A stretch of DNA of 64,000 bases, from IMG/VR virus record IMGVR_UViG_2540341129_000004. One strand, 5' to 3'. The notes below the pieces were generated by a model. The model was not told where the DNA came from. It did not search any database and saw nothing but the letters and a program-made list of their open reading frames with translations. This DNA is from an uncultured virus (IMG/VR IMGVR_UViG_2540341129_000004). Taxonomy: Duplodnaviria > Heunggongvirae > Uroviricota > Caudoviricetes. The translations under genes and the position numbers were made by a program. Shown here one piece after another: positions 47,613 through 64,000 of this stretch (its first letter is position 1; each line of letters starts with the position of its first letter).

Positions 47613-47632
47613 AAATAAGAGGAGGATATTAT

Positions 47633-47877: not shown

Positions 47878-48078
47878 ATGTCGCAAAGTAACTATAGACC
47901 GTCAGTTCCTAGATGGGTTGGCGATATACTAGAGCTAGACAAGAAAAGAAGACAAAATCAGTACAGAGGCTCACTAACGTCAGGTCAAGAGAAGAAGGAC
48001 TGGGACGAGTGGAAGCGTAGATATTCAAGAAAATTAAAGTACGCAAGATTAAACGGATGGACGATCGAAGAAGAGTGA
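47878..48078 (+). CDS. YosK-like hypothetical protein
   Basis: 66 aa, SD GGAGG. Confidence 0.6.
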   Translation: MSQSNYRPSVPRWVGDILELDKKRRQNQYRGSLTSGQEKKDWDEWKRRYSRKLKYARLNGWTIEEE

Positions 48079-48320
48079 CAATTCCTAAGGAGGACGAATA
48101 GATACGGCTTGAATCTAGATAAAATCACAGTTTCATAGGAAGGGGAAACAAAATGAGTGCAGCAAGAAAGTGGAGAGATTTGAGAAGTAAGCTAATTGGA
48201 TATAAGGCATTCGGTAAGTTCAGTGATGTTGTTATTGACCATATTCTCAATGATATGGATGAGTTGGACGTAAGACACGAAAAAGATAAAAACAAAAAAT
48301 AGAGAAAAGGGAGTTGTGGA

Positions 48321-48677
48321 ATGGGAGCTGCTAAACAGTTATACGTGAAGCGTAGTGACTTGGTGATTTTAGATGATGCGAAAGATAATACGAAAATACA
48401 TATGCAAAATGGTGAGTCGTTTACGGTTTTTAAAGGAGAGCTTATTGCAACTGACTTAGATGGAAACCAAATGGTTATCCCGCAGAGTCAAAAGCATAAA
48501 TATATACCAGTTGATTTGGAGATGGAGGACTTATCCCCTCTTAGAGCTAAGATGGCCAAAGGCTATGCTGAGATGACTGAGATCAATTTAGAAATGTCTG
48601 AAGCTTTCCATCATGCTGAAAATGAAGCAGAAACAACCACCAACACCTTGGTTAACGGGGAATATAAAGAATATTGA
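48321..48677 (+). CDS. yosL: YosL, MazE-like C-terminal MazF inhibitor
   Basis: MAKGYAEMTEINLEMSEAFHHAENEAETT resembles the MazE C-terminus and AimX; directly upstream of nrdI. Confidence 0.85.
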   Translation: MGAAKQLYVKRSDLVILDDAKDNTKIHMQNGESFTVFKGELIATDLDGNQMVIPQSQKHKYIPVDLEMEDLSPLRAKMAKGYAEMTEINLEMSEAFHHAENEAETTTNTLVNGEYKEY

Positions 48678-49069
48678 TTATTACATATGAAAGCAAGACC
48701 GGTAATGTGAAAAGGTTTGCTCAAGCATTGCAAAGGGAGTTAAACTTCGACATCATTGAAATTACAGATGATTTAATTGTTGATGAAGAATTCATACATA
48801 TTACATATACGATAGGCTTTGGGGAAGTGCCCGAAAGGACTTTGAATTTTATTATTAAGAATAAAAATAAAATAAAAGGAGTTGCTGTGAGTGGTAACAA
48901 GATTTGGGGTGATAACTATGGTTTAGCTGGGGACAAGCTTTCAGCAATGTTCCACGTACCATTGTTATTAAAGTTTGAACTAAGTGGAACAAAACAAGAT
49001 TTGCAGAAGATTAATCGGGAGGTACAACTTATTGACAAACACAATACCAAAGTGGATCAAGCTCAATAA
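48674..49069 (+). CDS. nrdI: Class Ib RNR flavodoxin NrdI
   Basis: YESKTGNVKRF, TYTIGFG, SGNKIWG, FELSGT. Confidence 0.93.
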   Translation: MIITYESKTGNVKRFAQALQRELNFDIIEITDDLIVDEEFIHITYTIGFGEVPERTLNFIIKNKNKIKGVAVSGNKIWGDNYGLAGDKLSAMFHVPLLLKFELSGTKQDLQKINREVQLIDKHNTKVDQAQ

Positions 49070-51131
49070 TGAGATCATGATTCAGAAAGACGGTAAGTTT
49101 CAATTTGAGAAGGATAAGGAGGCTGTACACAGCTACTTTGTAGACTATATCAATCAAAACACAGTCTTTTTCCATGATTTAAAAGAGAAACTGGATTATC
49201 TGATTAAAAATGATTATTACGAAGAAGAATTCTTAAGCGAATACACATTTGAGCAGATTAAATCGATTTTTAAAATTGCTTACAGTTACAAATTCAGATT
49301 TCCATCTTTCATGAGTGCTTTTAAGTTCTACAATGACTATGCATTGAAGACAAACGACAAAACAAAGATTCTGGAAAGATATGAGGATCGTGTCTCAATT
49401 GTAGCTCTGTATTGTGCAGATGGTGATTATGAAAAGGCTATTGAGGAAGTACACGCCATGATGAGACAAGAGTATCAGCCGGCAACACCTACTTTTCTTA
49501 ATGCGGGACGTAAGCGAAGAGGCGAAATGGTGAGCTGTTTCTTACTTGAAGTAGGCGACAGTTTGAATGATATTTCACGTGCTATTGATACCTCTATGCA
49601 GCTTTCTAAGCTAGGTGGAGGAGTAGCATTGAATCTAAACAAACTAAGAGCCAAGGGTGAAGCAATTAAAGACGTAGAGAATGCAACTAAAGGTGTCGTA
49701 GGTGTTATGAAGCTATTGGATAATGCTTTTAGATATGCCGATCAAATGGGACAAAGGCAAGGGTCTGGAGCAGCTTATCTAAGTGTATTCCATCCAGATA
49801 TTACAGATTTCCTGGATACCAAAAAAATCTCAGCAGATGAAGATGTCCGAGTTAAAACACTGTCTATTGGTGTAGTGCTTCCTGATAAATTCATTGAATT
49901 GGCAAGAGAAGATAAGGATTTTTACATGTTCTATCCTCATTCAGTTTACAAAGAATATGGACAGTATCTTGATGAGATGGATATCAACAAAATGTATGAT
50001 GAGCTTGTTGAAAACCCTAGGGTTAGAAAAGCAAAAGGGAATGCTCGAAAGCTGTTAGAGCAATTGGCCATTCTAAGAAGTGAATCTGGCTATCCTTATA
50101 TCATGTTTTCTGACAATGTAAATAAGGTACATCCAAATGAACACATTTCAAAAGTGAAGTTTTCTAATTTGTGCTCTGAAGTCCTCCAAGCATCACAAGT
50201 GTCAGTCTATACAGATTACGATCAGGAAGACGAAATTGGTTTAGATATCTCATGTAATCTTGGATCCATGAACATTGTAAACGTAATGAGCAATCAATCA
50301 ATTGCCTCAACGGTCAGAATAGCAATTGACTCGCTGACAACTGTTACAAGGAAAACAAACATTGTAAATGCCCCAGCTGTTGCGAGAGCAAATACACTAA
50401 TGAGATCAATTGGCTTAGGGCAGATGAATCTCCATGGTTTTTTGGCTCAAAATAAAATCGCTTATGAAAGTGAAGAAGCTAAGGACTTTGCAAATACATA
50501 CTTTATGATGGTTAACTTCTACTCCCTGCAACGTTCAATGGAAATTGCAAAAGAAACAGGGGAGACTTACTACAAGTTTGATGGATCAACCTACAAATCA
50601 GGCGAGTATTTTGAGAAGTACGTGACAAATGATTATAGCCCTAAATATGAAAAGGTTAAAATCCTGTTTGGAGATCAACATATTCCTAACATTGAAGATT
50701 GGATGAAGCTTAAAGAGGATGTTATGAAATATGGCTTGTATCATTCATATAGACAGGCTGTGGCACCTACCGGTAGCATCTCATATGTTCAATCATCTAC
50801 TGCCGGTGTAATGCCTATTATGGAGAGAATCGAGGAACGTACATACGGAAACAGTAAGACATATTATCCGATGCCAGGTTTATCGGCTCAGAACTGGTTC
50901 TTTTTTAAGGAAGCATACGACATGGATATGTTTAAGGTAGTTGATCTCATTGCGACTATTCAGCAGCACGTCGATCAGGGGATTTCATTTACCTTGTTCT
51001 TAAAGGATACGATGACGACAAGAGACCTAAATAGAATAGATCTCTACGCTCATCATAAAGGAATTAAAACACTGTATTATGCAAGAACAAAGGATACGAC
51101 TCAAGAAGGGTGTCTTAGTTGCGTTGTTTAA
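49032..51131 (+). CDS. nrdE: Class Ib ribonucleotide reductase alpha subunit, uninterrupted
   Basis: QPATPTFLNAG, SCF, SNLCSE, APTGSIS, CLSCVV; 699 aa from TTG. Confidence 0.96.
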   Translation: MTNTIPKWIKLNNEIMIQKDGKFQFEKDKEAVHSYFVDYINQNTVFFHDLKEKLDYLIKNDYYEEEFLSEYTFEQIKSIFKIAYSYKFRFPSFMSAFKFYNDYALKTNDKTKILERYEDRVSIVALYCADGDYEKAIEEVHAMMRQEYQPATPTFLNAGRKRRGEMVSCFLLEVGDSLNDISRAIDTSMQLSKLGGGVALNLNKLRAKGEAIKDVENATKGVVGVMKLLDNAFRYADQMGQRQGSGAAYLSVFHPDITDFLDTKKISADEDVRVKTLSIGVVLPDKFIELAREDKDFYMFYPHSVYKEYGQYLDEMDINKMYDELVENPRVRKAKGNARKLLEQLAILRSESGYPYIMFSDNVNKVHPNEHISKVKFSNLCSEVLQASQVSVYTDYDQEDEIGLDISCNLGSMNIVNVMSNQSIASTVRIAIDSLTTVTRKTNIVNAPAVARANTLMRSIGLGQMNLHGFLAQNKIAYESEEAKDFANTYFMMVNFYSLQRSMEIAKETGETYYKFDGSTYKSGEYFEKYVTNDYSPKYEKVKILFGDQHIPNIEDWMKLKEDVMKYGLYHSYRQAVAPTGSISYVQSSTAGVMPIMERIEERTYGNSKTYYPMPGLSAQNWFFFKEAYDMDMFKVVDLIATIQQHVDQGISFTLFLKDTMTTRDLNRIDLYAHHKGIKTLYYARTKDTTQEGCLSCVV

Positions 51132-51453
51132 AGAATGAGTCTCGCTCTTCATCTGAAGGAGCTACTTTATAGGTGAATGTTCCATTATCATCGTTTATCT
51201 CAAATTCTGGCCAAGGTAACTTAGCGTATTCGTTTGCAATAGTGTTAGGATCTCCTTTTTTTATATATTCAAGACCAACGCGAGAACCGTTTCTAGGTTT
51301 TGGCTTAACAAGATACGACTTGGCAGACTCAAAGCAATGAATCATAAAAATAATAGATTTTTTCTCTTGGATGTTCATAGAGTCAATTTTAATTGGATAA
51401 ATAACAGTATTACCGCAAGGAGTTTCAGAAGGTAGAGCTCCAGAAATAAACAA
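51115..51453 (-). CDS. Hypothetical antisense protein inserted between nrdE and nrdF
   Basis: 112-aa ORF with SD AGAGG. Confidence 0.55.
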   Translation of the reverse strand: MFISGALPSETPCGNTVIYPIKIDSMNIQEKKSIIFMIHCFESAKSYLVKPKPRNGSRVGLEYIKKGDPNTIANEYAKLPWPEFEINDDNGTFTYKVAPSDEERDSFFKQRN

Positions 51454-51516
51454 TACAAAAACCTCTTTTCATTTTATTTATGATAATTATAGCAAATAAC
51501 AGGGGAGGAAAATCTC

Positions 51517-52512
51517 ATTAATAAAAAAATTCAGTATACAGCAGCAAACTGGTCAAAGCATGAAGATGATTTCACCCAAATGTTTTACAACCAAAACGTA
51601 AAGCAGTTTTGGCTTCCGGAAGAGATCGCATTAAACGGCGATCTTCTCACTTGGAAGTATCTTGGAACAAAGGAACAAGATACTTATATGAAAGTTTTAG
51701 CTGGGCTTACCTTATTAGACACAGAGCAGGGGAACACGGGCATGCCGATTGTGGCCGAGCACGTTGAGGGACATCAAAGAAAAGCAGTATTAAACTTTAT
51801 GGCCATGATGGAAAACGCTGTCCATGCGAAGTCTTACAGCAACATCTTTCTAACTTTGGCTCCAACCGAGCAGATCAATGAAGTCTTTGAATGGGTTAAA
51901 AACAATAAATTTCTTCAAAAGAAAGCAAGAACAATTGTTTCAATTTATGAAGAAGTTGAGAAAAACGATGAAATTTCACTGTTCAAAGCGATGGTTGCAT
52001 CTGTGTTTCTGGAGAGTTTCCTTTTCTATTCAGGGTTTTATTATCCACTTTACTTTTATGGACAAGGGAAACTAATGCAGAGCGGGGAAATTGTGAATTT
52101 AATTATCCGTGACGAGGCGCTACACGTCGTATACATCGGTTTATTAGCTCAAGAGATATATAAGAAACAAACGCCTCAGAAGCAAAAAGAACTGTATGAA
52201 TGGGCTTTATGCTTGCTACAAGAGCTTTATGAAAATGAACTGGAGTATACAGAAGATGTTTATGATCAGGTTGGTTTAGCTCCAGATGTAAAGAAATTCA
52301 TCAGATACAATGCGAATAAAGCTTTAAACAACCTGGGATTTGATCATCTGTTCGAGGAAGAAGACGTTAACCCAATTGTTATTAATGGATTGAGCACAAA
52401 GACTAAATCCCATGACTTCTTTTCAATGAAGGGCGTTGGCTATAAAAAAGCAACGGTTGAACCATTAAAGGATTCTGATTTCATTTTCGATAGCAAAGGA
52501 GTTATTTCATGA
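51517..52512 (+). CDS. nrdF: Class Ib ribonucleotide reductase beta subunit, uninterrupted (probable ATT start)
   Basis: [33 protein letters not shown]. Confidence 0.93.
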
Positions 52513-52751
52513 GACTGATTAAATTAGAACAACCGAATTGCAATCCTTGCAAAATGGTATCCAATTATTTAAACGAAGCAGGAGTCGAATATGAGACATT
52601 TGATGTAACACAGAAGCCAGAAGTGGCAGCGCAATATGAGGTAATGGGTGTACCGGTGACTATACTGCTTAATGAGCAAGGAGAGGAAGTAAAGCGGAGC
52701 ATTGGCTTTAAGCCTGATGAGCTTGATAAGTTAGTGAGGGAGGTTGTTTAA
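52509..52751 (+). CDS. yosR: Thioredoxin/NrdH-like redoxin
   Basis: CNPC, GVPV. Confidence 0.88.
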
Positions 52752-52992
52752 AATCACAGAAGAGCAAAAGTCTTTAATTAAGATTGGTGACACACTTAAG
52801 TGCCTAAAAGGGGATTGGCATTTTGAAAACAATTGTAATTACACAGTTTATGGAGATAATGCAGACAACACCGGTACACCAGTCATCTGGTGTGATGAAG
52901 TATCTCCTCATACAGTAAAGAGTTTGAATTTGGAACAGTGGGAAATCGTTCAGAAAGGATCAATAAATGAGGTTAAATATGAGAGATTATAG
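52744..52992 (+). CDS. Hypothetical protein
   Basis: Coupled ORF. Confidence 0.55.
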   Translation: MFKITEEQKSLIKIGDTLKCLKGDWHFENNCNYTVYGDNADNTGTPVIWCDEVSPHTVKSLNLEQWEIVQKGSINEVKYERL

Positions 52993-53335
52993 AATGTATA
53001 TTTTAGTTAACGAGGATATCAAAATCAGCAAAGGGAAGTTAGCTGGACAGGTTGGGCATGCAGTAATGAGCTATGTATATCACAAAGCAGTCAAGCCATT
53101 AAGTGAAGGAAGAGAAATTAAAAGCCTAGATGAATATATGAAAGAACAAAAGAAAATCATCTTAAAATGCCCCCAATACAAACTTGAAGAGTTAGAACAT
53201 GCAGGAGGATATACTGTTATTAGAGATAAAGGTTATACACAACTTGAGCCTAATACTCTGACTTGTATTAACTACGGCATTAAGACACCTGAACAGCTTC
53301 CTGAATGGGTGATAAATCTTAAACTCTACAATTAA
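52967..53335 (+). CDS. Peptidyl-tRNA hydrolase type 2 (Pth2)
   Basis: KGKLAGQVGHA, KKIILK, IRDKGYTQ..PNTLT, LKLY. Confidence 0.85.
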   Translation: MRLNMRDYRMYILVNEDIKISKGKLAGQVGHAVMSYVYHKAVKPLSEGREIKSLDEYMKEQKKIILKCPQYKLEELEHAGGYTVIRDKGYTQLEPNTLTCINYGIKTPEQLPEWVINLKLYN

Positions 53336-53387
53336 AATATTGTTGGACAAAATAAATTAAAAAAACTAAAGGAGTTAATAAAACATA

Positions 53388-53816
53388 ATGCAAATTAAAA
53401 TCAAATATTTAGATGATACACAAACAAGGATCAGCAAAATTGAGAAAGGGGATTGGATTGATCTCCGGGCGGCTGAAGATGTAGTAATCAAAAAGGACGA
53501 ATTTAAACTTATTCCGTTAGGAGTGGCAATGGAGCTGCCAGAAGGATATGAGGCCCATGTCGTCCCTCGTTCAAGCACATTTAAAAACTTCGGCATTATT
53601 CAAACAAACTCAATGGGTGTTATCGATGAGTCCTACAAGGGAGACAATGATTTCTGGTTCTTTCCGGCTTATGCATTACGGGATACAGAAATTAAAAAAG
53701 GGGAGCGTATCTGTCAGTTCAGAATCATGGAGAAGATGCCTGCAGTTGAATTGATTGAGGTAGATCATTTAGGCAACGATGATCGAGGCGGTCACGGATC
53801 GACTGGAACTAAGTAA
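53388..53816 (+). CDS. yosS: Trimeric dUTPase
   Basis: [28 protein letters not shown]. Confidence 0.95.
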
Positions 53817-54011
53817 TACAAGCCCTGGCTTTGATCATGATGTTTGTCCAGTGGAGGGTCTCAGCCAGGGTACAACTTAAAATACTCAAAAAGCTCGACA
53901 ATTATGCCCAACAAAGCGGTTGTTTCATGAAAAGGTTTTAAAAACAGGGGTGTTGATGGAATGCACATCTCTATAAAAGAAGACTTTTATAGAAAAGTGA
54001 GGTGAGATTCA

Positions 54012-54311
54012 GTGAACAATTATGTAGATAAAATTAAAGAACATCTTCATAAAATTGCTGAGCTTGAAAAAGGATTGTCATTATTCAGTGAAGATGAAGA
54101 AGAATACATAAGCTTATTAGCTAAGATTCAACATCAGTTTGATTTAATTTCAGATGAATCAATGGAAGGGTTTAAAGAATTAACTTTACATATAAGAAAT
54201 ACAGGTCAGAAAAGAATACAACGAGGAATTGACCAGCTACCTCAGACAATCAAAGAAAGTGTAAGTGAAGAAATCAAAGACATGAAGAGAGCCGGCGAGC
54301 TTTTTGATTGA
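54012..54311 (+). CDS. Coiled-coil hypothetical protein
   Basis: SD GAGGTGA. Confidence 0.6.
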   Translation: MNNYVDKIKEHLHKIAELEKGLSLFSEDEEEYISLLAKIQHQFDLISDESMEGFKELTLHIRNTGQKRIQRGIDQLPQTIKESVSEEIKDMKRAGELFD

Positions 54312-54413
54312 TGTTTGAATTTTAAACATGCCTATATAAACAGTGACAAGTATCGATTGGGTGTGAGCTTAAATACAATACATTGAATACTTTGAACAAC
54401 TGGAGGTCTTAAT

Positions 54414-54596
54414 GTGTTTAGACAATATCCAATATGGTACACACCGTCGCTGTATACTTTGAATTACTTGCCACAATTTTCACCATACATTGCTTACTTG
54501 AATAGTGCTGAACGTTGTTTTCAACAATGTATGTACCAAACTCATGGTAATGCTGAATGGTGTCATAGAAACTGCTACGGCCCAATCTATCGATAA
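54414..54596 (+). CDS. Small Tyr/Pro/Cys-rich protein
   Basis: CxxxC...CxxxC; SD GGAGG; hairpin at 54605-54633. Confidence 0.55.
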   Translation: MFRQYPIWYTPSLYTLNYLPQFSPYIAYLNSAERCFQQCMYQTHGNAEWCHRNCYGPIYR

Positions 54597-54661
54597 ACTT
54601 AAACAGAGCAGTTGGATTTAATTCCTCTGCTCTAAAAAATAAAATAAGGAGATGTATTGTA

Positions 54662-55066
54662 ATTACATACTTTACGTTAATACTTGCAGCATACTTATTT
54701 GCACTAAACATTAATGAAATTAGATTAATTACACGAGGAGAACAGAATGTATACGCTAAAATTACGCATATGCTTTCTAATTCACCGTATAAAGAACTGA
54801 AGAAAAATAAGAACTTAGTGTATGTCATTACATTGTTCAAGGGGATTTCGTTCATTATTCCCTTGGCTACTATTGGACTGATTACGCATGGTAATTTGCT
54901 AATGTTAGCTTGGACAGCCTTTGCTTTAATCTATACCGGTTTAACAATGTTTAAAATTCTTGATGTTTTGGACGGTGACTCAAACAATAAACAAAACAAG
55001 TTCGTGTACATTTTGTTTGTTTGCGGTAATATAGTTTTTTCTCTAATTTTTATTTTTCCTTTTTAG
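54662..55066 (+). CDS. Multi-pass membrane protein (probable ATT start)
   Basis: Hydrophobic frame extends upstream of ATG 54770 to the SD at 54646. Confidence 0.5.
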   Translation: MTYFTLILAAYLFALNINEIRLITRGEQNVYAKITHMLSNSPYKELKKNKNLVYVITLFKGISFIIPLATIGLITHGNLLMLAWTAFALIYTGLTMFKILDVLDGDSNNKQNKFVYILFVCGNIVFSLIFIFPF

Positions 55067-55082
55067 GTCTCTTAAGTGTTAA

Positions 55083-55730
55083 TCACCATCTAAAGCCGAA
55101 TTTTTTTGGCACTTCATAGCATTTTAGACACTGAGGTTTTACATTGTAAGCATAGTGTCTAGGATTTTTCTTATTGGTCAGAAGGGATGAGTATGGTTTA
55201 TCCTCACTGGTATGCATGCATGTCGCATAGACGTTTGCTTGATTTGTGGAATTAAATACATCATGTACAGCTTGTCTCTGAATATTGTAGTTCATTTGCT
55301 GGTGCTTTAACATTGAAGGTCTACCTCCCCAAGCACATACTACACGTTCAGAAATATCTAAGTGTTTTTCAATAAGTTTATTATTTAGATATAGAATTTT
55401 ATAATACTTTTTCCCGTAAGTGGCTTTACATTTTTCTAATAGTTCTCCCAATTTGTTGGCGTCTGAAGCATAAAAAGGGAATAAGTTAAGTACTCTGATT
55501 TCACCAGCATATTTTTTTGAAAAGAAAAATGAAATAATATTATCAATAGTTGGATCAGATTTTGTTGCTGTTGCTCTAGAAGGATTCATAAGAATAATAG
55601 TTATAATGTTTCTTAAATTGTTATTTAATTTTATTTTCAATAAAAATCTAAACGAAATATTAGCACCTAAATGAAAAACTTTGCAATGAACATTTTTAAC
55701 AAAATCATTATTGGCAAAGGGTATAGCCAA
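55083..55730 (-). CDS. DUF1643-family protein
   Basis: LMNPS.A....DPT, NLF, AWG, NPRH. Confidence 0.8.
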   Translation of the reverse strand: MAIPFANNDFVKNVHCKVFHLGANISFRFLLKIKLNNNLRNIITIILMNPSRATATKSDPTIDNIISFFFSKKYAGEIRVLNLFPFYASDANKLGELLEKCKATYGKKYYKILYLNNKLIEKHLDISERVVCAWGGRPSMLKHQQMNYNIQRQAVHDVFNSTNQANVYATCMHTSEDKPYSSLLTNKKNPRHYAYNVKPQCLKCYEVPKKFGFRW

Positions 55731-55780
55731 ATTAAATCACACCTTTTTTAGAAGTGAAAAAATTATACACTAACTGGAGG

Positions 55781-56632
55781 ATGAAAGCCATAAGCAATTT
55801 CACAGATATTATTGTAAAAGAAAATTTAAAGCGGGTTTTAACTGAAGGGAAAACTGAAGCGGGTAGTTCAGTAAGACCTAAATGGAAAGATGGACTTCCA
55901 GCTTATTCATTAAAAACCTTCGGAGTTGTTAATCAATACGATCTTCAGAAAAGTTTCCCAATTTCAACACTAAGACCCACTGCTTGGAAAAGTGGATTAA
56001 AAGAGATAATGTGGATTTATAATGACGCATCAAATGATGTTGATTTACTGGAAAGAAAATATGGAGTTAAATATTGGAGGAGTTGGGCCAATAGTGAAGG
56101 GAATTTAGGATTAGCTTATGGAAGACAAATGCAATATGAGCACAGGTATAAGGAAGGCTATTTTAAACAAATTGAAAGACTGATTTGGGATCTTAAAAAG
56201 AATCCGTATAGCAGGAGAATGATAACAAACTTGTACAATCATCAAGACTTATTTGAAATGACTCTCTATCCATGCGCATTTTTAACAATGTGGGACTATG
56301 ACGGAGAGTATCTGAATATGACATTAGTCCAACGATCTTCAGATTATCTAGTAGCTGGTAACATAAATGTCACCCAGTATGCTTTATTGCAACACATGAT
56401 TGCACAATCAGTAGGCTACAAAGTGGGAAAATTTCATCACTATATTAATAACCTTCATATTTATGATCGACATGTTAACGTTGCAAAGGAAATTGTTTCA
56501 CGGGAATCTAAAGATACTCCTAGGCTTATTATTGACGATTCAATAAGGAACTTTTACGATTTTAAACCAGAGCATTTTTCTTTGGAAGGGTATAATCCTC
56601 ATGAACAAATTACGCTTGAGGTAGCAGTATAA
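55781..56632 (+). CDS. thyA: Thymidylate synthase ThyA
   Basis: SRRM, LYPC, QRSSD, NLHIYDRH; start ATG 55781 or ATA 55790. Confidence 0.95.
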   Translation: MKAISNFTDIIVKENLKRVLTEGKTEAGSSVRPKWKDGLPAYSLKTFGVVNQYDLQKSFPISTLRPTAWKSGLKEIMWIYNDASNDVDLLERKYGVKYWRSWANSEGNLGLAYGRQMQYEHRYKEGYFKQIERLIWDLKKNPYSRRMITNLYNHQDLFEMTLYPCAFLTMWDYDGEYLNMTLVQRSSDYLVAGNINVTQYALLQHMIAQSVGYKVGKFHHYINNLHIYDRHVNVAKEIVSRESKDTPRLIIDDSIRNFYDFKPEHFSLEGYNPHEQITLEVAV

Positions 56633-57138
56633 TGCTGTCTCTTATTGCTTGCTGCGACAAATCAATGGCCATCGGGTATGAGAATAATTTGCTGTACCAT
56701 ATTCCTGAAGACATGAAACGTTTTAAAGAACTCACTACAGGAAAGCTGTGTATACAGGGAAGGCTTACATACGAATCAATCGTAAACATTACAGGAAAAC
56801 CACTTCAGAATCGAAGGAATATCATATTAACCAAAAACAAGGATTTCAAGCCTGATCACTCTTCTTTTGTTTATCATTCGGTTGCCGATGTATTAAAGCT
56901 TATACGTGGTCAATTGGATACAAATGAAGAAGTAATGGTCATTGGAGGAGGCGCTATATACGAGGCATTCTTACCACATGCTGATAAGGTTTATTTAACG
57001 ATTGTTGATTCAGTCGCTGCGAATGCAGATACATGTTTTCCAAGGTTAGCTGATGACTGGAGAGTAATTGAAAAGGATCACAGAAAAGCAGAAAACAATA
57101 CCACATTTAATTATTCATTTGTGACTTACTCAAAATAA
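56632..57138 (+). CDS. dfrA: Dihydrofolate reductase
   Basis: AIG, PEDMKRFK, GRLTYES, PLQNRRNIILT, IGGGAIY, ADTCFP. Confidence 0.93.
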   Translation: MLSLIACCDKSMAIGYENNLLYHIPEDMKRFKELTTGKLCIQGRLTYESIVNITGKPLQNRRNIILTKNKDFKPDHSSFVYHSVADVLKLIRGQLDTNEEVMVIGGGAIYEAFLPHADKVYLTIVDSVAANADTCFPRLADDWRVIEKDHRKAENNTTFNYSFVTYSK

Positions 57139-57142
57139 TTAA

Positions 57143-57220
57143 GAATAAAAATAAAATAGTTATAGACTTTTGGAAAGTTGAATGATAAGATAAAGACAAG
57201 TTAAAAGCTTGTCTTTTTTT
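57143..57220 (+). promoter_or_regulatory. SPBRE-like box, SigA promoter and adjacent terminator hairpin
   Basis: GAATAAAAATAAAAT; TAGACT-17nt-TAAGAT; AAAGACAAG...CTTGTCTTT plus T run. Confidence 0.6.
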
Positions 57221-57265
57221 ACATACTTTTAGAATAAAAATAAAATAATATATAGGAGTGACGAT

Positions 57266-57631
57266 ATGAAAACTGCAAAAGATTATCTTGTTTCCATTTC
57301 CAAACCTCTTGTTGCAATTGAGGAGACTAAACAACGACTTCAAAATGAAATTGATAACCTTTATAAAGAGCTAGGGAAAGTTGATAAAGAGCTCAATGAA
57401 TTTTATCACAAGCTAGAAGAGGCAAAATTTAATGCTTCAGAGGGATATCATCTTTCGTTAAAAGGTCAAAGGATATTGAGAAAGAGAAGAAACTTAAAAC
57501 AAGAGCTCCAATTAATGAACACACTTTTCGGGAGTTTGAACAATAACGGTTGGACTCTTGAATCACTAAAAATTGCAGAGTATAAAATTAGCAAAAAGAA
57601 AAACAAGCATTTACAGTATGAATCAGTTTAA
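57266..57631 (+). CDS. Coiled-coil phage protein
   Basis: YHKLE..KFNASEGY...LRKRR. Confidence 0.7.
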   Translation: MKTAKDYLVSISKPLVAIEETKQRLQNEIDNLYKELGKVDKELNEFYHKLEEAKFNASEGYHLSLKGQRILRKRRNLKQELQLMNTLFGSLNNNGWTLESLKIAEYKISKKKNKHLQYESV

Positions 57632-57689
57632 AGACATAATCCACATTCACATTGTGAAAACATATTTAATCTTATAGGGAGGTGATAAA

Positions 57690-58058
57690 TTGCAACAAAA
57701 AGAGCAAGAATTGCTGTCAAAGGAAGAACAGCTTGAAATTGATGTTTTAGAAAAGGAAGCAGCTTTACTCCGGCTAGAAGTGGAACAAGAAGATTTCAAT
57801 CTCCACAAAATTGGGGAGATCGGAGTACTTAAAGATTTTCTCTTATACATAAAGAAATACAGAGCAATGTTTACTGTGCAGCAAGCAGAAGAATTTAGAG
57901 ATATGGATGACCGAATGAAAGAAATTATTAAAGTGCATGATGGACAAGTAATGGTTGATGAAGAAGCTTTAGAGGGGTTCATTTGTGAAATTGAAGATCA
58001 AATTAATTTAATTGGAAGTGATGGAGATAAGAATAGTGGTGTAGATGATACACGGTAA
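57690..58058 (+). CDS. Hypothetical protein
   Basis: SD GGGAGGTGA. Confidence 0.65.
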   Translation: MQQKEQELLSKEEQLEIDVLEKEAALLRLEVEQEDFNLHKIGEIGVLKDFLLYIKKYRAMFTVQQAEEFRDMDDRMKEIIKVHDGQVMVDEEALEGFICEIEDQINLIGSDGDKNSGVDDTR

Positions 58059-58085
58059 TGCGCCCGGGTTTTTGGACGCAGAGAA

Positions 58086-58181
58086 TTAGCGTCCAAGAAG
58101 GGCGAAAATAGGTTTTCTGAATGCGAAAACAAATGCCGCTGTAAGTGCGATAACTACTTTATCTTCGGTTGATACTTTCAT
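58086..58181 (-). CDS. 31-aa hydrophobic peptide
   Basis: MKVSTEDKVVIALTAAFVFAFRKPIFALLGR with SD AAAGGAGG; not in the ORF track. Confidence 0.6.
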   Translation of the reverse strand: MKVSTEDKVVIALTAAFVFAFRKPIFALLGR

Positions 58182-58229
58182 GAATCGAACCTCCTTTCGG
58201 TAACTTAGGTATATTGTATCACATAAGTG

Positions 58230-58243
58230 CGAATGTGTGTTCG
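58230..58243. promoter_or_regulatory. LexA (SOS) box
   Basis: CGAATGTGTGTTCG, one mismatch to CGAAC-N4-GTTCG. Confidence 0.6.
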
Positions 58244-58275
58244 GTTTTTGTGAAAATTTCGGGAGGGATTACGTA

Positions 58276-58653
58276 ATGGTATGTCGTTTATGCAAGGAAC
58301 GCGGAAAAACGTGGGAAGGCTCCGATCCGGTATGCGCTTTTGAAAACGGTGTGTTTTCGCCGGACAATTGGGCGTGCGCAACGATGGGGAAACTGCGCAG
58401 ATTATCGGAGGAACTCGGACATTCCGATCGAGACGATGATTCTTGCGGATCAATAGGATACGTACCTTTAAGCGATAATTATGCGTCGGAAACTTACAAC
58501 GATTACGGAGGCTATATCATAATGATGTGGTACAAAGAGCGCGGAAAGGTTGGTAACGCACTATTTATGACCGACGAAAGCACGGTAACTTTGACGATTG
58601 AACATGCAGAGATTGCGATTAAAACGGCTGAGAGGTGGTTGCGTAATGACTGA
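58276..58653 (+). CDS. Cys-containing phage protein
   Basis: CRLC...CAF..NWAC; SD GGGAGG. Confidence 0.65.
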   Translation: MVCRLCKERGKTWEGSDPVCAFENGVFSPDNWACATMGKLRRLSEELGHSDRDDDSCGSIGYVPLSDNYASETYNDYGGYIIMMWYKERGKVGNALFMTDESTVTLTIEHAEIAIKTAERWLRND

Positions 58654-59638
58654 AACGAAAAAGTATGTACGGATTAAGAAGGCGTCTGTAGAGGGAGCCT
58701 GGTATGCGGATAAGATCGGACAGATATTCGAAGTTGTACACGAAAACTCCATTACACTGCTTACAAAGAGCGGCGGTCATCATTCCGTACTCAAAGAAGA
58801 CGCCGAAATCATCGTCACAGAAAAGCGACCAGCCAAAGTTGGCGAGCGCGTGTTACTGACTGCGCCGACTAATACAAAAGGAAAACACCGAATAGGCGAT
58901 GTATTCACCGTAAGAGAATTCGGAGAAACCGGCGTGCATGTAACTGAAGACGAATTTATGACGCTATGGCACAAAGAATACGAAGTCATCGTCAATAGTG
59001 AAGTGAAAAACGAGGATGGAACTAAGCACGAAGCCTCTGCTGAGGATTTGTGTACGGAACCAATGACTGAGGAAGTCAAACAACTACGTTGTACAGTGGC
59101 GAATTTGATTGGCGAGAATGAACGCTTGAAGGCGTCTTTTCAGGAAATCACGGAGCTCGCTGATAACTTTTACGTTGAGGATAATTCGGTTGCTAACGGT
59201 ATTTATATTATAAAACCAGATATCATGCAGTATTCAAATACGGTATATCTTATTCAAGCAATCGCAAAGGGCGTTAAAATGAAGCCGACAATCACGAAGG
59301 AACAGGCAGAGGCTATAGAAGAACTCCGATTAAGATTGAGCGATGAAGGAATATTACTATCATATACAAATGATAGCTTAACAGTTGGCGATAATAAAAG
59401 TGGTTGTTTATATAATCTTGATTTATTAACATTAGCTACTGCATTAATTAACGGTTATGAATCTGAACCGACACCTGAGGAAAAACTGCGGGACTATTAT
59501 GAACATATAAATAGATCGCGGGATGAGAGGTATGTAGCAGGGGATATTGAAGCTAAACGCCATAATGCTGGAGTATTAACCGGAATACGCAATACACTTG
59601 ACCTTCTCGGAATCGAAATCGAAGGGGTGAATGCTTGA
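58646..59638 (+). CDS. Multi-module (probably fused) phage protein
   Basis: SH3-like KRPAKVGERV module, coiled coil, C-terminal MKPTITKEQAEAIE module. Confidence 0.55.
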   Translation: MTETKKYVRIKKASVEGAWYADKIGQIFEVVHENSITLLTKSGGHHSVLKEDAEIIVTEKRPAKVGERVLLTAPTNTKGKHRIGDVFTVREFGETGVHVTEDEFMTLWHKEYEVIVNSEVKNEDGTKHEASAEDLCTEPMTEEVKQLRCTVANLIGENERLKASFQEITELADNFYVEDNSVANGIYIIKPDIMQYSNTVYLIQAIAKGVKMKPTITKEQAEAIEELRLRLSDEGILLSYTNDSLTVGDNKSGCLYNLDLLTLATALINGYESEPTPEEKLRDYYEHINRSRDERYVAGDIEAKRHNAGVLTGIRNTLDLLGIEIEGVNA

Positions 59639-59768
59639 TGAAGCGACCAGCACCGTATGAATTAAACGATTCAATAGCAGCGCTGAAGCTCGGCGTACCT
59701 GAACACCTTTATCATCACGTTTGGTGCCTTATTTACGAAATCGAAGCATTACAAGAGGAGGCCACAAG

Positions 59769-60110
59769 ATGATCGATAAATTGACGAAAGATCAACTCGA
59801 AGTAATCCGAAAGCGTTCGGAGAAGGCTACGGAAGGCCCGTGGCGAATCGGGAAGCAATCACCAAACGGATTAAATAATATCGGAACAATTGGCGGATTA
59901 CTGACTGCACAAACAACGGATGAAGAGGACGCAAATTTCATCGCAAACGCCCGCCAAGATATTCCGTCGCTACTCGATCACATTACTTTTCTAAACGAAG
60001 TAATATCGAGCTGCCGATGCGCTGAGTGTGGCGATGAATTGGGGGAAGATTGGGCAACTAACAACGGAGTAGCGTTTTGCAATTACTGTGCTGGACTTAA
60101 TTCTTTATGA
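59769..60110 (+). CDS. Ead/Ea22-like phage protein
   Basis: EKATEGPW...DANFIANARQDIPSLL; CAEC..CNYC. Confidence 0.7.
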   Translation: MIDKLTKDQLEVIRKRSEKATEGPWRIGKQSPNGLNNIGTIGGLLTAQTTDEEDANFIANARQDIPSLLDHITFLNEVISSCRCAECGDELGEDWATNNGVAFCNYCAGLNSL

Positions 60111-60139
60111 AATCTGTATTTTAAAGAGAAGGTGATACA

Positions 60140-60262
60140 GTGAAAGAGTCGTTGAAGAATGATTTTCAAGAGTTTATGAGTATTACAAAAAGCTTTCTTG
60201 CTGTTTCAGGAGCAGTCTTTTGGCTATTGATAATTTCACTTGTTTTTGCTGGAGGATATTAA
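60140..60262 (+). CDS. 40-aa single-TM peptide
   Basis: MKESLKNDFQEFMSITKSFLAVSGAVFWLLIISLVFAGGY; SD AAGGTGA. Confidence 0.5.
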   Translation: MKESLKNDFQEFMSITKSFLAVSGAVFWLLIISLVFAGGY

Positions 60263-60301
60263 AATGAGTCACTCATATGTTCACCAAAGGAGGTGAATAA
60301 A

Positions 60302-60340
60302 ATGCCAGTAGTACTTTATGGATTTGGAAGAGGAGCATAA
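60302..60340 (+). CDS. Orphan 12-aa arbitrium-like peptide MPVVLYGFGRGA
   Basis: SD AAAGGAGGTGA; last 12 nt (AGAGGAGCATAA) identical to the aimP 3' end. Confidence 0.6.
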   Translation: MPVVLYGFGRGA

Positions 60341-60364
60341 AAAGAGAGGGGACAGACCCCTCTT
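60341..60364. terminator. Hairpin between the mini-peptide and the sspC remnant (U tract on the minus strand)
   Basis: AGAGGGG-acaga-CCCCTCT preceded by an A run. Confidence 0.7.
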
Positions 60365-60366
60365 GA

Positions 60367-60423
60367 TTAATGAAATTGGCCATTCATACTTTGTTGGGCT
60401 AGGCGAACTAAACGCTTTGTAAT
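60367..60423 (-). pseudogene. sspC: 3' remnant of alpha/beta-type SASP gene
   Basis: ITKRLVRLAQQSMNGQFH-stop matches the SASP C-terminus; 5' part missing. Confidence 0.75.
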
Positions 60424-60443
60424 CATGAACAATAAACAAAGGA

Positions 60444-61388
60444 GTGAAATGTATAGGCATTATTAAAGAACAAAAGGTTGAGGTCAGCTGGAATCCTATG
60501 ACATCGAGACACTATCAAACACTAGGATATGAATTTACCTTTTGGAGGGATAAATTTCATGTGCCATATTATCATTTACCACTTACTTCTGAAAAAATGG
60601 TTTTAGTTTCTTGTGACAAAGAGAAATGCACAAATGTTAAGTCAGTTAAATATAATGAATTTAACCGGTTGTACAAAAATAAAAAATATGAATGTAAAAA
60701 ACATAGCCATTCTTATTATGAGGATAAAGCGAGGGAAAGAGGGTTTATTTTAACATCAGAATACAAAGGTGTAAAAGGTAAAGTTGATTTGATCTGTTTA
60801 AAGAATGGTCATAAATCAACAAAATTGTGGTCTCAAATTAATAATGGATCTAAATGTTTAAAATGTCATCAGGAAAGCCTGAAATTGAGCATTGATTATA
60901 TTAAAGAAGAATTCTTAAAGAAAAACTTATTGCTTTTATCAAATGAATACGCCAACGAAAAGAGCAAGTTAGCTTTTAAATGTAAGAATGGACACTATGG
61001 AGAAATTGCGTGGAACTATTTTCAACAAGGAGGGGGATGCCAGCAGTGCTATAGGAAGAGTCGTTTTAGAGAAGGTAATCCGAGGTGGAATAAGAATAAA
61101 ACTGATACTCAGAGGATAAATGACAGAAAGTATCGTGAATATTTACAGTGGAGAAAGAAAGTTCTACAGAGGGATGATTACACATGTCAAAAATGCTGGC
61201 TTAAAAAGAAAAAATATTTAACTGCTCACCATATCTATAATTATATGGAGCATAAAGATATTCGACTAGAAGTTGATAACGGGTTGACCTTGTGTGATTC
61301 TTGCCATGAACATTTTCATAATACATATGGATACACTAACAACAATTATATACAACTGTTTATGTACTTAAACAAAGAAGGGGGATAA
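60444..61388 (+). CDS. HNH homing endonuclease with Zn-ribbon repeats
   Basis: C..GH...C..C repeats; [12 protein letters not shown]...AHH...[14 protein letters not shown]. Confidence 0.88.
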
Positions 61389-61389
61389 T

Positions 61390-62217
61390 ATGAAAATCGA
61401 TTATGTTTCAGATCTTCATATTAATCACTGGATACCTTGGAACAATAACCAAATCAAATGGGAAAAGCGAACAAGGGAGATTATTAGAAGGTTAATATCG
61501 AATGGAAATGGTGAGGTATTAATAATTGCCGGTGATTTTACTGAGTGGAATCAACAGACACTGTGGGTACTTGATGAAGTAGCAAAGCAGTATGAAAAGG
61601 TTTACTTTACATATGGTAATCATGATCTTTATTTACTCAGTAAAAATCAGCAACGAAAATATTCCGATTCATTGGGAAGGGTGAATGATTTAATTCAGAA
61701 GGCTGCAGACATCAAGAATGTCACTCCATTGATAAAGTCAACAGATACATACAAAGGGAAAGTCTTTGCCGGGGATGTCATGTGGTATCTTCCAAAAGGA
61801 AATGAAGGATGGGATTTCTTCAAAGGTGTCTCTAATGATTCGAACTATATCAGCCTTAATGGATACAGCAAAGAAGATGGGGTACGAGCAATGTGGAAAG
61901 AATCAATGGACTGGTATGACACTCTTGAAAACTCTGATATTGATGTATTTGTATCTCATGTCCCACCTGTTCACAATCCCTATTCTCCGTTCGAGCCTAA
62001 TACGTGCTATATGGTTGATGTCCCGTTCATTAACGCAAAACATTGGGTTTGTGGTCATGATCATTTACAAGCTGAGTTTGACAAAGATGGAACGAGATTT
62101 CACATGAATTGTATCGGATATCCGTATGACTATGATAATTACCCTAGTGTCAATGTGATACCAGATAAGCAAGTTGATACATATAAAACGTTTGAGTTGA
62201 AGACATTTGAAATATGA
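61390..62217 (+). CDS. yotB: Calcineurin-like metallophosphoesterase
   Basis: SDLH, AGD, GNHD, SH, GHDH; 275 aa. Confidence 0.88.
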
Positions 62218-62226
62218 GGTGAATTC

Positions 62227-62448
62227 GTGAAGAAAAAATTAGATGATGTGTGGACAGTTGTATATAAAGATCATGATGAAGAACCTATGGCCTTTTCATA
62301 CTATTCCAAAACAGATGCGGAGATTGCAAAACAGACAATTGAAAAATCAAACGGTACTCAGCTAGTTAATGAAAAGGAAGAAGTCGTAGGGCATATTCAT
62401 TTAGACTGGGTCTATTTAATCCAAGGGAGGTTAATTAAAACCGACTAG
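62227..62448 (+). CDS. Hypothetical protein
   Basis: SD GAGGTGA. Confidence 0.6.
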   Translation: MKKKLDDVWTVVYKDHDEEPMAFSYYSKTDAEIAKQTIEKSNGTQLVNEKEEVVGHIHLDWVYLIQGRLIKTD

Positions 62449-62494
62449 GAGAGAGAAAATAAAATTCTAATTTTATTGAAAAGGGGAGATTAAA

Positions 62495-62854
62495 TTGAAT
62501 AAGAGAGTAAAGAAGAAGATTCGAAATAGAGTTGAATCATGGATTATTTATAAGAATCCTAATGGGTCATATAATTCATTGGGTGTAAACAAATTTGGAG
62601 AAGTACCCTCCCATGCACGCCCTTTGCATCCTGAATATGAAACATTAGGAGAGGTCTTAAATTCATTCCCTAAAGGATTTAACTTTCCTTTGGTTGAGTT
62701 GACAAAAGAAGAAGAAAACATGTTGTTCTTTGATCATCATCCTACAGAGTGCGGCTGCTGGCACACAGGAGATAGAGATACGTGGGGTATTTGGGGACAG
62801 AGGTATTTATTGAAAAAAGTATCGGATGGGTGTTGCGAATACGTCTCAAAATAA
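62495..62854 (+). CDS. Hypothetical protein
   Basis: ORF bounded by palindromic sites. Confidence 0.6.
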   Translation: MNKRVKKKIRNRVESWIIYKNPNGSYNSLGVNKFGEVPSHARPLHPEYETLGEVLNSFPKGFNFPLVELTKEEENMLFFDHHPTECGCWHTGDRDTWGIWGQRYLLKKVSDGCCEYVSK

Positions 62855-62895
62855 AATATTTATTTTCTGATTTTATCCAGAGAGGGGAAATGATA

Positions 62896-63135
62896 ATGGA
62901 TTACACAAAACTGTTAGAGGAAAAGTACCCAATTAGCATTATTCAGTATGTAAGACAGAGAGAAGGTTTAGATAAGAAAGATGTCTCCAAGGATAAAGAA
63001 ATCTTAGAAATGACGAACTCAGAAGTATTTAGAGAGGTTCTAGCATGGAATGGTTTTATTGGAGGATGGGATCACATAATTAAAGACTGGATTAAGAGCA
63101 TTTATGGAATCGATCTTGATGACTTTGAAAAGTGA
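62896..63135 (+). CDS. Hypothetical protein
   Basis: SD AGAGGGG. Confidence 0.6.
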   Translation: MDYTKLLEEKYPISIIQYVRQREGLDKKDVSKDKEILEMTNSEVFREVLAWNGFIGGWDHIIKDWIKSIYGIDLDDFEK

Positions 63136-63297
63136 AACCATGTCATATGGACAAAGTAATAAAGTTGACTATGCTTCGACTGGTGATGAAACTGATTTTG
63201 ATTGTCCTAAATACGAAGGGAATCATCTTGAAGAAATAGACAACAGCATTTAAAAGAGCAGTAAAAGGCCTCAAATTTTCACAGGGGGATTGCTATT

Positions 63298-63474
63298 ATG
63301 ATTGGAAAAGCATTATACAATAATTCATGGTTTGAAGTAGCAAATATCAACTTTGACACAGGGCATATCATAATTAAAAACGACAGTGAAAACTCGTTGG
63401 GTTTGAGAATAGGTAAAACACTAACACTTGATCTTGATTACGTCGATGATGTAAAAATTGGACTTCTGCTGTAA
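63298..63474 (+). CDS. 58-aa hypothetical protein
   Basis: SD AGGGGG; hand translation. Confidence 0.5.
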   Translation: MIGKALYNNSWFEVANINFDTGHIIIKNDSENSLGLRIGKTLTLDLDYVDDVKIGLLL

Positions 63475-63517
63475 ATGAATAAAATGTTGATTTTATCGGA
63501 AGGGAGAGAATTTAATA

Positions 63518-63679
63518 ATGAGTACCCAAAGAGGGGCAAATACACCGGAGGAATTGGCTAAATCAATTCAGAAATTAGGAAGGGAAATGCAAGAATTTAG
63601 TGAATGCAGTAATGGTATTCGTGAAATTGTTATTACTCTAGATGAAGATGATGGTTCATTTACGATTACAACAGATTAA
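63518..63679 (+). CDS. 53-aa hypothetical protein
   Basis: SD GGGAG; hand translation. Confidence 0.5.
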   Translation: MSTQRGANTPEELAKSIQKLGREMQEFSECSNGIREIVITLDEDDGSFTITTD

Positions 63680-64000
63680 AATTTGATTTCATTTAGAAAG
63701 GGGATAGGAAAACGGACGTTTTAGAAAGAGCGATTAAACGTGAGAGACAAACCAAGTGTAAACTCCTAAGAAAGTTTAGAAAAGCTAGAGATATGGCTAG
63801 CAAACATAGTAAAAGAGGGTACACATGCAATTTCCTTAGGAGGCAAATTAGATATCATGATCAGTACAGTTGGATTCAGAAATACTCAAAAAACGAACTT
63901 GCAATAAGAATATTTCAATGGTCAGAACGAGAGAGAAACATGTTCAGATAAAATTAAGAAGGGAGAGTCTTATGGAGAACGCAATGTCCTGGTTTGATAT

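Follow-up and report, generated by a model that had tools for sequence, protein, structure and literature searches.

Twelve-codon minigenes of SPbeta-like phages end in the arbitrium peptides of other phages and may serve to forge their signals

In the arbitrium system of SPbeta-like phages, the mature AimP peptide bound to its receptor AimR halts aimX expression and favours lysogeny, and the cognate peptide, when added, blocks prophage induction (PMC13220667). The hexapeptide GFGRGA is one of six major arbitrium peptide families (PMC6458997) and the commonest peptide of clade 2, where it belongs to 56 of 281 AimRs (19.9%), found in Bacillus subtilis, B. spizizenii, B. inaquosorum, B. vallismortis, B. 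altitudinis and B. safensis; in the same list SASRGA ranks second (42 AimRs) and NPGRGA seventh (13) (PMC13220667, Table S2). A signal read by another phage's AimR leads to early lysogeny of that phage and benefits the emitter, and two arbitrium prophages occur together in 116 of 328 genomes (35%) (10.1101/2025.10.13.681967). Here we describe an orphan open reading frame (ORF) of 12 codons that ends in GFGRGA and lies in a 64,000-nucleotide (nt) stretch of an uncultured virus (IMG/VR record IMGVR_UViG_2540341129_000004; hereafter the window), itself part of a 131.6-kb SPbeta-like provirus record. Comparison with related phages argues strongly that this minigene belongs to a real, selected gene family tied to arbitrium, and on balance we favour the view that such orphan minigenes make the signals of rival phages and silence the rivals' AimR.

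The closest described gene is aimP of SPbeta and phi3T (clade 2). Minigene hexapeptides are identical to the mature signals GFGRGA, SASRGA and NPGRGA, and the two kinds of gene share the type of Shine-Dalgarno sequence (SD), the phage family and probably the MrpR/SPBRE regulatory class. By contrast, the minigene has 12 codons rather than ~40-46, encodes no signal peptide, lies 52 kb from the only aimR, has H or Y where AimP has A before the hexapeptide, never encodes the carrier's own peptide and may stand in tandem with a second, different minigene. Set against a canonical AimP, which is encoded next to aimR, has ~40-60 amino acids (aa) with a secretion signal and ends in an xxxRGA hexapeptide identical to a known signal, the minigene has the last of these features and lacks the others. 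The ComS/XIP and SHP peptides of streptococci are likewise made from very short precursors without a Sec signal and with the mature peptide at the C-terminus, but these precursors have 17-25 aa, are encoded beside the receptor gene, deliver a cognate signal and are exported by PptAB, none of which is evident for the minigene. The plasmid-encoded inhibitor peptides iCF10 and iAD1 of Enterococcus are also small products of a mobile element that compete at a cytoplasmic RRNPP-type receptor and act on a lifestyle switch; unlike the minigene products, which would mimic a signal, they are secreted, act on the element's own receptor and antagonise the signal. Arbitrium crosstalk provides the nearest functional parallel, in that a peptide read by another phage's AimR leads to lysogeny or blocked induction and the emitter benefits, yet there the emitter's own secreted AimP resembles the rival's, and here we find dedicated extra genes encoding exact copies (PMC13220667; 10.1101/2025.10.13.681967). 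In Phaeobacter, prophage quorum sensing similarly denies competitors lytic growth through the signal of another prophage, though with full LuxI/LuxR signal-receptor pairs and not orphan minigenes (PMC13345283). Arbitrium signalling and manipulation via crosstalk are known; what appears new is a set of dedicated minigenes, with neither receptor nor signal peptide, that encode the signals of other phages. We found no description of orphan arbitrium peptide genes in the published arbitrium literature, of which some earlier papers and preprint supplements lay outside our scope and could mention such ORFs.

An initial annotation made from the window alone had placed an SD before a 12-codon ORF ending in GFGRGA-stop, followed by a hairpin; all of these elements are present, and the ATG is now fixed at 60302 (Table 1). 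That annotation also held up in reporting the same SD at aimP, where the 11-mer AAAGGAGGTGA recurs, a distance of about 52 kb to the arbitrium locus, SASRGA as the phage's own peptide and GFGRGA as a natural variant, the latter now confirmed in PMC6458997 and in Table S2 of PMC13220667. The window's aimP product has 41 aa with a hydrophobic N-terminal stretch and ends in SASRGA, and one AimR homologue alone is found in the 131.6-kb record (E up to 1). The SD 11-mer has three copies in the window against 0.07 expected (at least three in 0 of 100 shuffles), and all intact relatives of the minigene have this SD or GGTGGTG or GAGGTGG in its place. As had also been noted, the final 12 nt of the minigene, AGAGGAGCATAA, recur only at the end of aimP. 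With one mismatch allowed, at least two matches to this 12-mer arise in 15 of 100 shuffles, and a six-frame reading of the 131.6-kb phage has three occurrences of RGA-stop where 1.2 are expected (at least two in 63 of 200 simulations); taken alone, the shared ends carry little weight. The third RGA-stop, at window position 9864, lies only four codons past the preceding stop and was set aside as chance. By contrast, GFGRGA directly before a stop is far from chance: it is expected 1.1e-4 times per phage and was absent from all 200 simulated genomes, and multiplication over the 26 known clade-2 peptides raises the expectation to ~0.003 per phage.

Conservation was assessed in a peptide-blind sample of 29 different IMG/VR contigs, recovered with patterns anchored in the end of sspC and its terminator. 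Eleven of them hold an SD, an ATG and an intact 12-codon ORF ending in YGFGRGA, one keeps the frame with the ATG changed to ATC, and two carry a 1-nt frameshift in which one T is lost (CTTAT for CTTTAT), so that the frame reads MPVVLMDLEEEHKKRGE. Eleven are decayed relics (GFGKGV, GFRKGA, GFREDL, or deletions) and four have unrelated DNA upstream. At least one intact minigene is kept in 14 of 30 contigs when L192, a carrier of a paralogue described below, is included. The identical GFGRGA ORF occurs at seven IMG/VR loci and in phage Goe14, and there are six further in-frame haplotypes. Eight of the 24 matching phage records were examined: the minigene is intact in Goe14 and SPbetaL1, frameshifted in phi3T and Goe12, and decayed in SPBc2, Goe11, SPbetaL8 and SPbetaL4, and none of the eight has a gene annotated at the locus. 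Records H20-H27 (Goe13, BUCT083, further phi3T records, derivatives and hybrids) presumably have the same frameshift, to judge by equal alignment figures alone. The SD, the ORF and the RGA-stop, absence of which from relatives would have spoken against the locus, are thus kept in a subset of SPbeta-like phages (11 of 29 contigs, Goe14 and SPbetaL1).

The 1-nt deletion, seen in phi3T (L001, 1862-1915) and in L002, L068 and L088, leaves a 17-codon ORF that runs into the terminator stem, making phi3T, the main model phage, a natural null for the GFGRGA minigene. Wider pattern searches returned little: the anchor pattern of SD and ATG had no matches in genome contigs, and a 19-nt sspC-end pattern matched 18 genome contigs and 35 metagenome contigs, which we judged to be chance matches from their sources (18 titled records, unrelated taxa). 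A 7-codon match to LGFGRGA on the 139-kb contig L032 is likewise chance, being out of frame within a long ORF.

The manner in which the intact copies differ points to selection on the peptide. Across the seven in-frame haplotypes, synonymous changes are found in codon 4 (GTA to GTT), codon 5 (CTT to TTA or TTG), codon 6 (TAT to TAC), codon 7 (GGA to GGT), codon 11 (GGA to GGG) and codon 12 (GCA to GCG), and the non-synonymous changes are V3E, V3L and L5F. The ratio of synonymous to non-synonymous changes is 8:3, or 6:4 if the Leu codon passed through Phe; with a synonymous fraction of 0.283 expected under neutrality, P lies between 0.003 and 0.036. Within codons 6-12, which encode YGFGRGA, four of four changes are synonymous (P = 0.004), or three of three when L030, a contig located by a peptide-biased pattern, is left out (P = 0.016); in the GFGRGA codons themselves all three substitutions (GGT, GGG and GCG) are silent. 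The idea that the hexapeptide might vary while RGA-stop is kept can therefore be answered: GFGRGA as a whole is held by synonymous change. Moreover, lineages that retain the SD and start also retain the peptide, and those without them, such as SPbeta and Goe11, have decayed (7 and 1 against 1 and 7; one-sided Fisher 0.005), in a small number of lineages that are non-independent. The pattern of substitution indicates that the minigene is a real gene under coding-type purifying selection.

Further support comes from paralogues. SPbeta has a second SD-led 12-codon ORF, MVQTLHSASRGA, at SPBc2 129848-129886, 75 nt upstream of its decayed GFGRGA relic, and this SASRGA minigene, together with forms that differ in sequence or end in NPGRGA, is found in several relatives (Table 1). 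The two changes in the L030 copy of the SASRGA minigene are both synonymous, and SPbetaL1, whose own signal is GVVRGA, keeps SASRGA and GFGRGA minigenes that are both intact. All members, the window ORF included, share one plan: a strong SD and M-x3-L-(H/Y)-hexapeptide-stop, just ahead of the sspC terminator. In L078 and L192 no ATG farther upstream is in frame, which points to the 12-codon unit as the conserved element. A search pattern that placed no demand on the hexapeptide itself (GGAGG, 4-10 nt, ATG, three codons, YTN, YAY, six codons, TAA) was run over both strands of five complete phage genomes, 648,102 bp in total. Its four matches were all minigenes, the reversed-pattern control gave none and the frameshifted phi3T yielded no match; in the window's phage, the minigene is the only ORF of this plan among 67 short SD-led ORFs. 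The three hexapeptides of the family rank 1, 2 and 7 in Table S2 of PMC13220667. Because paralogous ORFs at the locus end in two other natural arbitrium peptides, the case extends beyond what the initial annotation could draw on.

We next compared the orphan peptides with the carriers' own signals, for which aimR was located in each carrier and the aimP behind it read (the aimP of L083 was unparsed). The 13 carriers of an intact GFGRGA minigene have seven cognate peptides among them (Table 1), and GFGRGA is the cognate in none of the 13, which bears out the expected difference from the carrier's AimP. The same holds for the paralogues: the orphan SASRGA is carried by SPbeta (cognate GMPRGA), Goe11 (GIVRGA), SPbetaL1 (GVVRGA) and L030 (GMPRGA), and L078, whose cognate is SASRGA, carries the NPGRGA paralogue instead, so that orphan and cognate coincide in none of five carriers. 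These data also bear on a suggestion of the initial annotation, namely that the peptide tunes the carrier's own AimR with no need for secretion or Opp uptake. The peptides would in this case act by weak crosstalk and sway the phage's own choice between lysis and lysogeny. The phi3T AimR does respond to SASRGA, SIIRGA, SPSRGA and GVVRGA (10.1101/2025.10.13.681967), and related S-type receptors stand close together in the receptor tree (PMC13220667). Nonetheless, exogenous GFGRGA left the induction of SPbeta, phi3T, Goe11 and 13952 unreduced, as SASRGA did that of SPbeta (PMC13220667), and the same GFGRGA minigene lies beside seven receptor types, a poor fit with the tuning of one receptor. Because GFGRGA is ineffective on those four phages and the minigene is found with seven receptor types, we consider action on the carrier's own receptor very improbable.

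Genuine aimP genes for GFGRGA exist on other proviruses, of 28-95 kb; they have ~40-44 codons and a hydrophobic N-terminal stretch, and, more generally, the true AimPs of the carriers and of GFGRGA phages have 40-46 aa, start with MKK and contain a hydrophobic stretch. Their codons, GGTTTTGGACGTGGTGCG, differ from the minigene at 5 of 21 nt over the hexapeptide and stop, and the flanks differ as well; the minigene is therefore not a recent copy, and we rejected its derivation as a remnant of a true GFGRGA aimP. None of five proviruses with such an aimP contained the minigene, and blastn of one such locus against the phage collection gave a weak match only. A related possibility is that the minigenes are silent cassettes or relics, aimP 3' ends left by recombination that might serve as donors for signal-specificity switching and are not expressed for their own sake. 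Arbitrium modules do move horizontally (10.1101/2025.10.13.681967), and the locus is a mosaic in which alternative cassettes follow a shared junction motif and relics are many. Yet the orphans and true aimP genes use different codons and have no flanking sequence in common, as is also seen between the window's aimP and the SPbeta orphan; each orphan has its own strong SD and ATG with the 12-codon unit as its conserved frame, the ATGs farther upstream in L078 and L192 lie in other frames, and copies without a start decay. This explanation we regard as scarcely probable. IMG genome 2799112227 contains a minigene carrier together with a provirus that has a true GFGRGA aimP.

The hairpin that follows the minigene raises the question of whether the ORF owes its existence to RNA structure. 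A 101-nt segment with the hairpin folds at -27.6 kcal/mol (z = -3.53; 0 of 200 shuffles as stable), and a terminator scan assigns the hairpin to the minus strand. Read on the minus strand, the minigene's TAA and A-run supply the U-tract of the sspC terminator, SPBc2 has a stem_loop annotated at the equivalent position, and relatives retain the stem with altered loop and closing pairs. The terminator explains only the stop codon and A-run, however, and we therefore rejected the possibility, raised in the initial annotation, that the ORF is a chance by-product of it. A broader form of this objection gives the minigenes no arbitrium role at all: as leaders or spacers, they would be translated so that the ribosome acts on the hairpin, and with it on read-through into antisense sspC or downstream genes or on the stability of the mRNA, or else their peptides would have some other target. 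The resemblance to arbitrium signals would then be a coincidence. The geometry is suggestive, since the stop lies 3-4 nt ahead of the hairpin, where a terminating ribosome would cover the 5' arm, the stop and A-run double as the terminator's U-tract, and the small upstream hairpin can pair with the SD. But a role at the RNA level leaves unexplained why YGFGRGA changes only synonymously and why three ORFs end in three natural arbitrium hexapeptides, when even one such ORF has a chance expectation of ~0.003. Furthermore, the ORF persists where sspC has been destroyed (the window and L078), and the downstream gene in most relatives is the convergent sspC, whereas an attenuator leader would control a downstream gene on the same strand, and its peptide sequence would be immaterial except for regulatory codons. 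We judge a role outside arbitrium improbable.

The position of the minigene suggests when it would be expressed. The ORFs at 57266-60262, upstream of it, are all on the plus strand and tightly spaced, and at the head of this gene string, which the minigene closes, stands a pair of copies of the 16-nt element GAATAAAAATAAAATA. This element has 20 copies in the window, every one on the plus strand, against 0.21 expected; the sites include 6829 (ahead of aimR), 8573, 27533, 38887, 42288, 48859, 57143 and 57232. It usually stands just ahead of promoter-like hexamers and marks the phage's early transcription units. According to PMC10516654, MrpR binds SPBRE, which lies within both PaimR and PyosX, and represses both promoters, and chromatin affinity purification sequencing (ChAP-seq) places MrpR peaks at the promoters of ten genes, aimR and yosX included. 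In SPbeta, the motif lies upstream of yosX, with the homologous minigene locus 740 nt downstream. Because their positions match those reported, we read GAATAAAAATAAAATA as SPBRE, the operator of MrpR (YopR), an identification made by position and not by published motif letters. The minigene would then be the last cistron of an early operon that is kept silent in the lysogen and would share its regulatory class with aimR-aimP. Eleven RNA-library records contain the region, four of which (X2-X5) were compared with window positions 44001-64000: X2-X4, from contigs of up to 14.6 kb, span all 20 kb with no differences, and the X5 contig begins at 60339. At 57139-57248 the RNA-library contigs show alternative joints and loose ends, one of which matches sequence upstream of aimR; these fit recombination, or assembly ambiguity, between SPBRE-bearing intergenic repeats.

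Based on these comparisons, we tentatively propose that the minigenes are forgeries, receptor-less and without a signal peptide, that copy the peptides of the commonest rivals within the infected or induced cell and silence competitors there without secretion, dilution or Opp uptake. For this strong form we claim less confidence than for the silencing of rival AimRs in general, which we picture as follows. The operon would be switched on together with aimR-aimP when MrpR (YopR) is absent or inactivated, upon infection or induction, as its SPBRE sites suggest. The 12-mer would be translated without a signal peptide, which would be expected to keep it in the cytoplasm, and its six N-terminal residues would be removed after the conserved L-H/Y, which may mark the cut site. 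In a cell where the carrier has just entered lytic development, the freed hexapeptide would occupy the AimR of a rival, be it a co-resident prophage or a co-infecting phage; by analogy with AimP-AimR biology, the rival's aimX would be shut off and the rival held in or pushed to lysogeny, leaving the cell to the carrier, and lysis could then carry the false signal to cells nearby. The lack of a signal peptide makes sense here because action in the carrier's cell would be immediate and private.

The same lack of a signal peptide can be read differently. Other RRNPP systems include pheromone precursors that are exported without a leader; these have a short, partly hydrophobic N-terminal half and the mature peptide at the C-terminus. 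The 12-mers could likewise be leaderless exported precursors, or be released by lysis, then cut outside the cell after an aromatic residue or His and imported by neighbours through Opp, which would amount to jamming at the population level. In favour of this, the minigene product is built alike, with a first half that is short and in part hydrophobic (MPVVLY) ahead of a C-terminal mature peptide, the conserved L-H/Y ahead of the hexapeptide resembles a processing site, and secreted non-cognate signals raise the fitness of their emitter (10.1101/2025.10.13.681967). However, neither an exporter nor an export signal is evident, the neighbouring genes have no informative or transporter families, no receptor lies nearby, and MVQTLH and MGQVLH, the leading halves of the paralogues, have little hydrophobic character; moreover, with AimP already leaving the cell through Sec, the same route would have been open to these peptides. 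Export or release is therefore an explanation we take seriously but consider unlikely.

Several observations weigh against intracellular forgery. AimR anchors the free N-terminus of the hexapeptide via a conserved Glu, E300 (PMC6458997; PMC13220667, Table S4), and thus the unprocessed 12-mer should bind poorly and processing would be needed. The residues before the proposed cut, L-H/Y, differ from the V/T-A of pro-AimPs. We know of no protease for such a cut. Loss of the minigene is frequent, with relics in 11 of 29 contigs, a frameshift in the phi3T group and decayed GFGRGA copies in SPbeta and Goe11; the minigene is therefore dispensable, and the GFGRGA locus of L030 keeps its frame despite ATG having become ATC. 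The selection statistics derive from few, non-independent lineages. One intact carrier was seen to share its genome with a true GFGRGA provirus, as were two relic carriers, in two genomes where a provirus with a true GFGRGA aimP accompanies relic-type SPbeta-like proviruses. Co-transcription with the SPBRE promoter is read from gene spacing, and the RNA-library contigs, being long and whole-phage, hold nothing specific to the minigene, with transcription and DNA carry-over inseparable in them. Translation of the minigene, the presence of its peptide and AimR binding are themselves predictions from sequence. Overall, the initial reading of the locus as a source of spoofed signals is partly supported: its comparative predictions came out in its favour and the paralogues strengthen it as far as sequence comparison reaches, and its mechanism is a proposal.

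The surroundings of the minigene suggest exchange of modules (Table 1). On the far side of the hairpin, all of sspC but its 3' end has been replaced by an ORF of 314 aa with a Pfam HNH match (E = 7.5e-5), followed by a yotB-like phosphoesterase, and the sspC remnant in L078 is followed by the same junction sequence as in the window; the replacement may be a homing-endonuclease insertion into a host-conversion gene. Ahead of the minigene lies a homologue of phi3T_185 and then, by alignment with phi3T, what an in-frame 165-nt deletion has left of a homologue of phi3T_186, which at full length has 62 aa and a weak DUF6877 match; the stop of this 10-codon remnant falls inside the minigene's SD. 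The junction motif AAATCTGTATTTTAAAGAGAA is present in the window and in L030, L078, L091, L093 and L192, and alternative cassettes follow it: in the window and in phi3T, the genes for the proteins of 40 aa and 62 aa, and in SPbeta-type contexts, a SASRGA or NPGRGA minigene, which suggests modular exchange at this junction. A patch of ~156 nt farther upstream is 88.5% identical to phi105 ORF9 and rho14 and probably reflects exchange between SPbeta-like and phi105-like phages.

Table 1. Positions of features in the window, and minigenes and cognate peptides of related records
Feature	Record	Position	Strand	Remark
SPBRE	window	6829-6844	+	own arbitrium module
aimR	window	6920-8074	+	own arbitrium module
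SD of aimP, AAAGGAGGTGA	window	8088-8098		same 11-mer as minigene SD
aimP	window	8103-8228	+	own arbitrium module
Final 12 nt of aimP, AGAGGAGCATAA	window	8217-8228		same as end of minigene
GAATAAAAATAAAATA, two copies	window	57143-57158, 57232-57247	+	flank a terminator, at promoter-like hexamers
phi105/rho14-like patch	window	59804-59959
Junction motif AAATCTGTATTTTAAAGAGAA	window	60113-60133
40-aa hydrophobic small protein	window	60140-60262	+	phi3T_185 homologue; cistron preceding minigene; no Pfam family
MSHSYVHQRR-stop	window	60264-60296	+	remnant of 62-aa phi3T_186 homologue
Small hairpin UUCACC/GGUGAA, predicted	window	60280-60297	+	partly pairs minigene SD; in minimum-free-energy and centroid folds
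Shine-Dalgarno AAAGGAGGTGA	window	60286-60296	+	5 nt ahead of ATG
Orphan arbitrium minigene, MPVVLYGFGRGA-stop	window	60302-60340	+	12 codons; TAA 60338-60340
Hexapeptide codons, GFGRGA	window	60320-60337	+	differs from phage's own SASRGA
G+C-rich hairpin	window	60344-60364	unstranded	sspC intrinsic terminator on minus strand; marks end of plus-strand operon
sspC 3' remnant, ...TKRLVRLAQQSMNGQFH-stop	window	60367-60420	-	last ~17 codons; rest replaced by HNH-endonuclease ORF
HNH-endonuclease ORF	window	60444-61388
MVQTLH-SASRGA minigene	SPbeta, Goe11, SPbetaL1, L030, L191
MVQTLYSASRGA minigene	L192			H changed to Y
MGQVLHNPGRGA minigene	L078			MGQVLH-NPGRGA; tandem with GFGRGA minigene
Cognate SASRGA	window, L069, L070, L078, L081			intact GFGRGA minigene
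Cognate SIIRGA	L073, L089			intact GFGRGA minigene
Cognate SAIRGA	L075			intact GFGRGA minigene
Cognate SPSRGA	L072, L085			intact GFGRGA minigene
Cognate GMPRGA	L086			intact GFGRGA minigene
Cognate GIVRGA	Goe14			intact GFGRGA minigene
Cognate GVVRGA	SPbetaL1			intact GFGRGA minigene

Arbitrium is the textbook case of communication between viruses, and work in 2025-26 has shown mutual manipulation of phages via similar signals. The GFGRGA minigene may have gone unseen because its copy is decayed in SPbeta and frameshifted in phi3T, the two main model phages, yet with SPbeta's SASRGA minigene even B. subtilis 168 carries a member of the family that has escaped notice. The proposal is testable with existing material: SPbeta in strain 168 for SASRGA, Goe14 and SPbetaL1 for GFGRGA, and phi3T and Goe12 as frameshift controls, together with the engineered phi3T::SASRGA, AimR-aimX reporters and synthetic peptides. 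If it is true, even a gene of 12 codons, which gene callers do not see, can have a specific function, the dominance of a few clade-2 peptides would in part be explained, and what had looked like accidental crosstalk would become an evolved weapon, a new layer of information warfare between phages.

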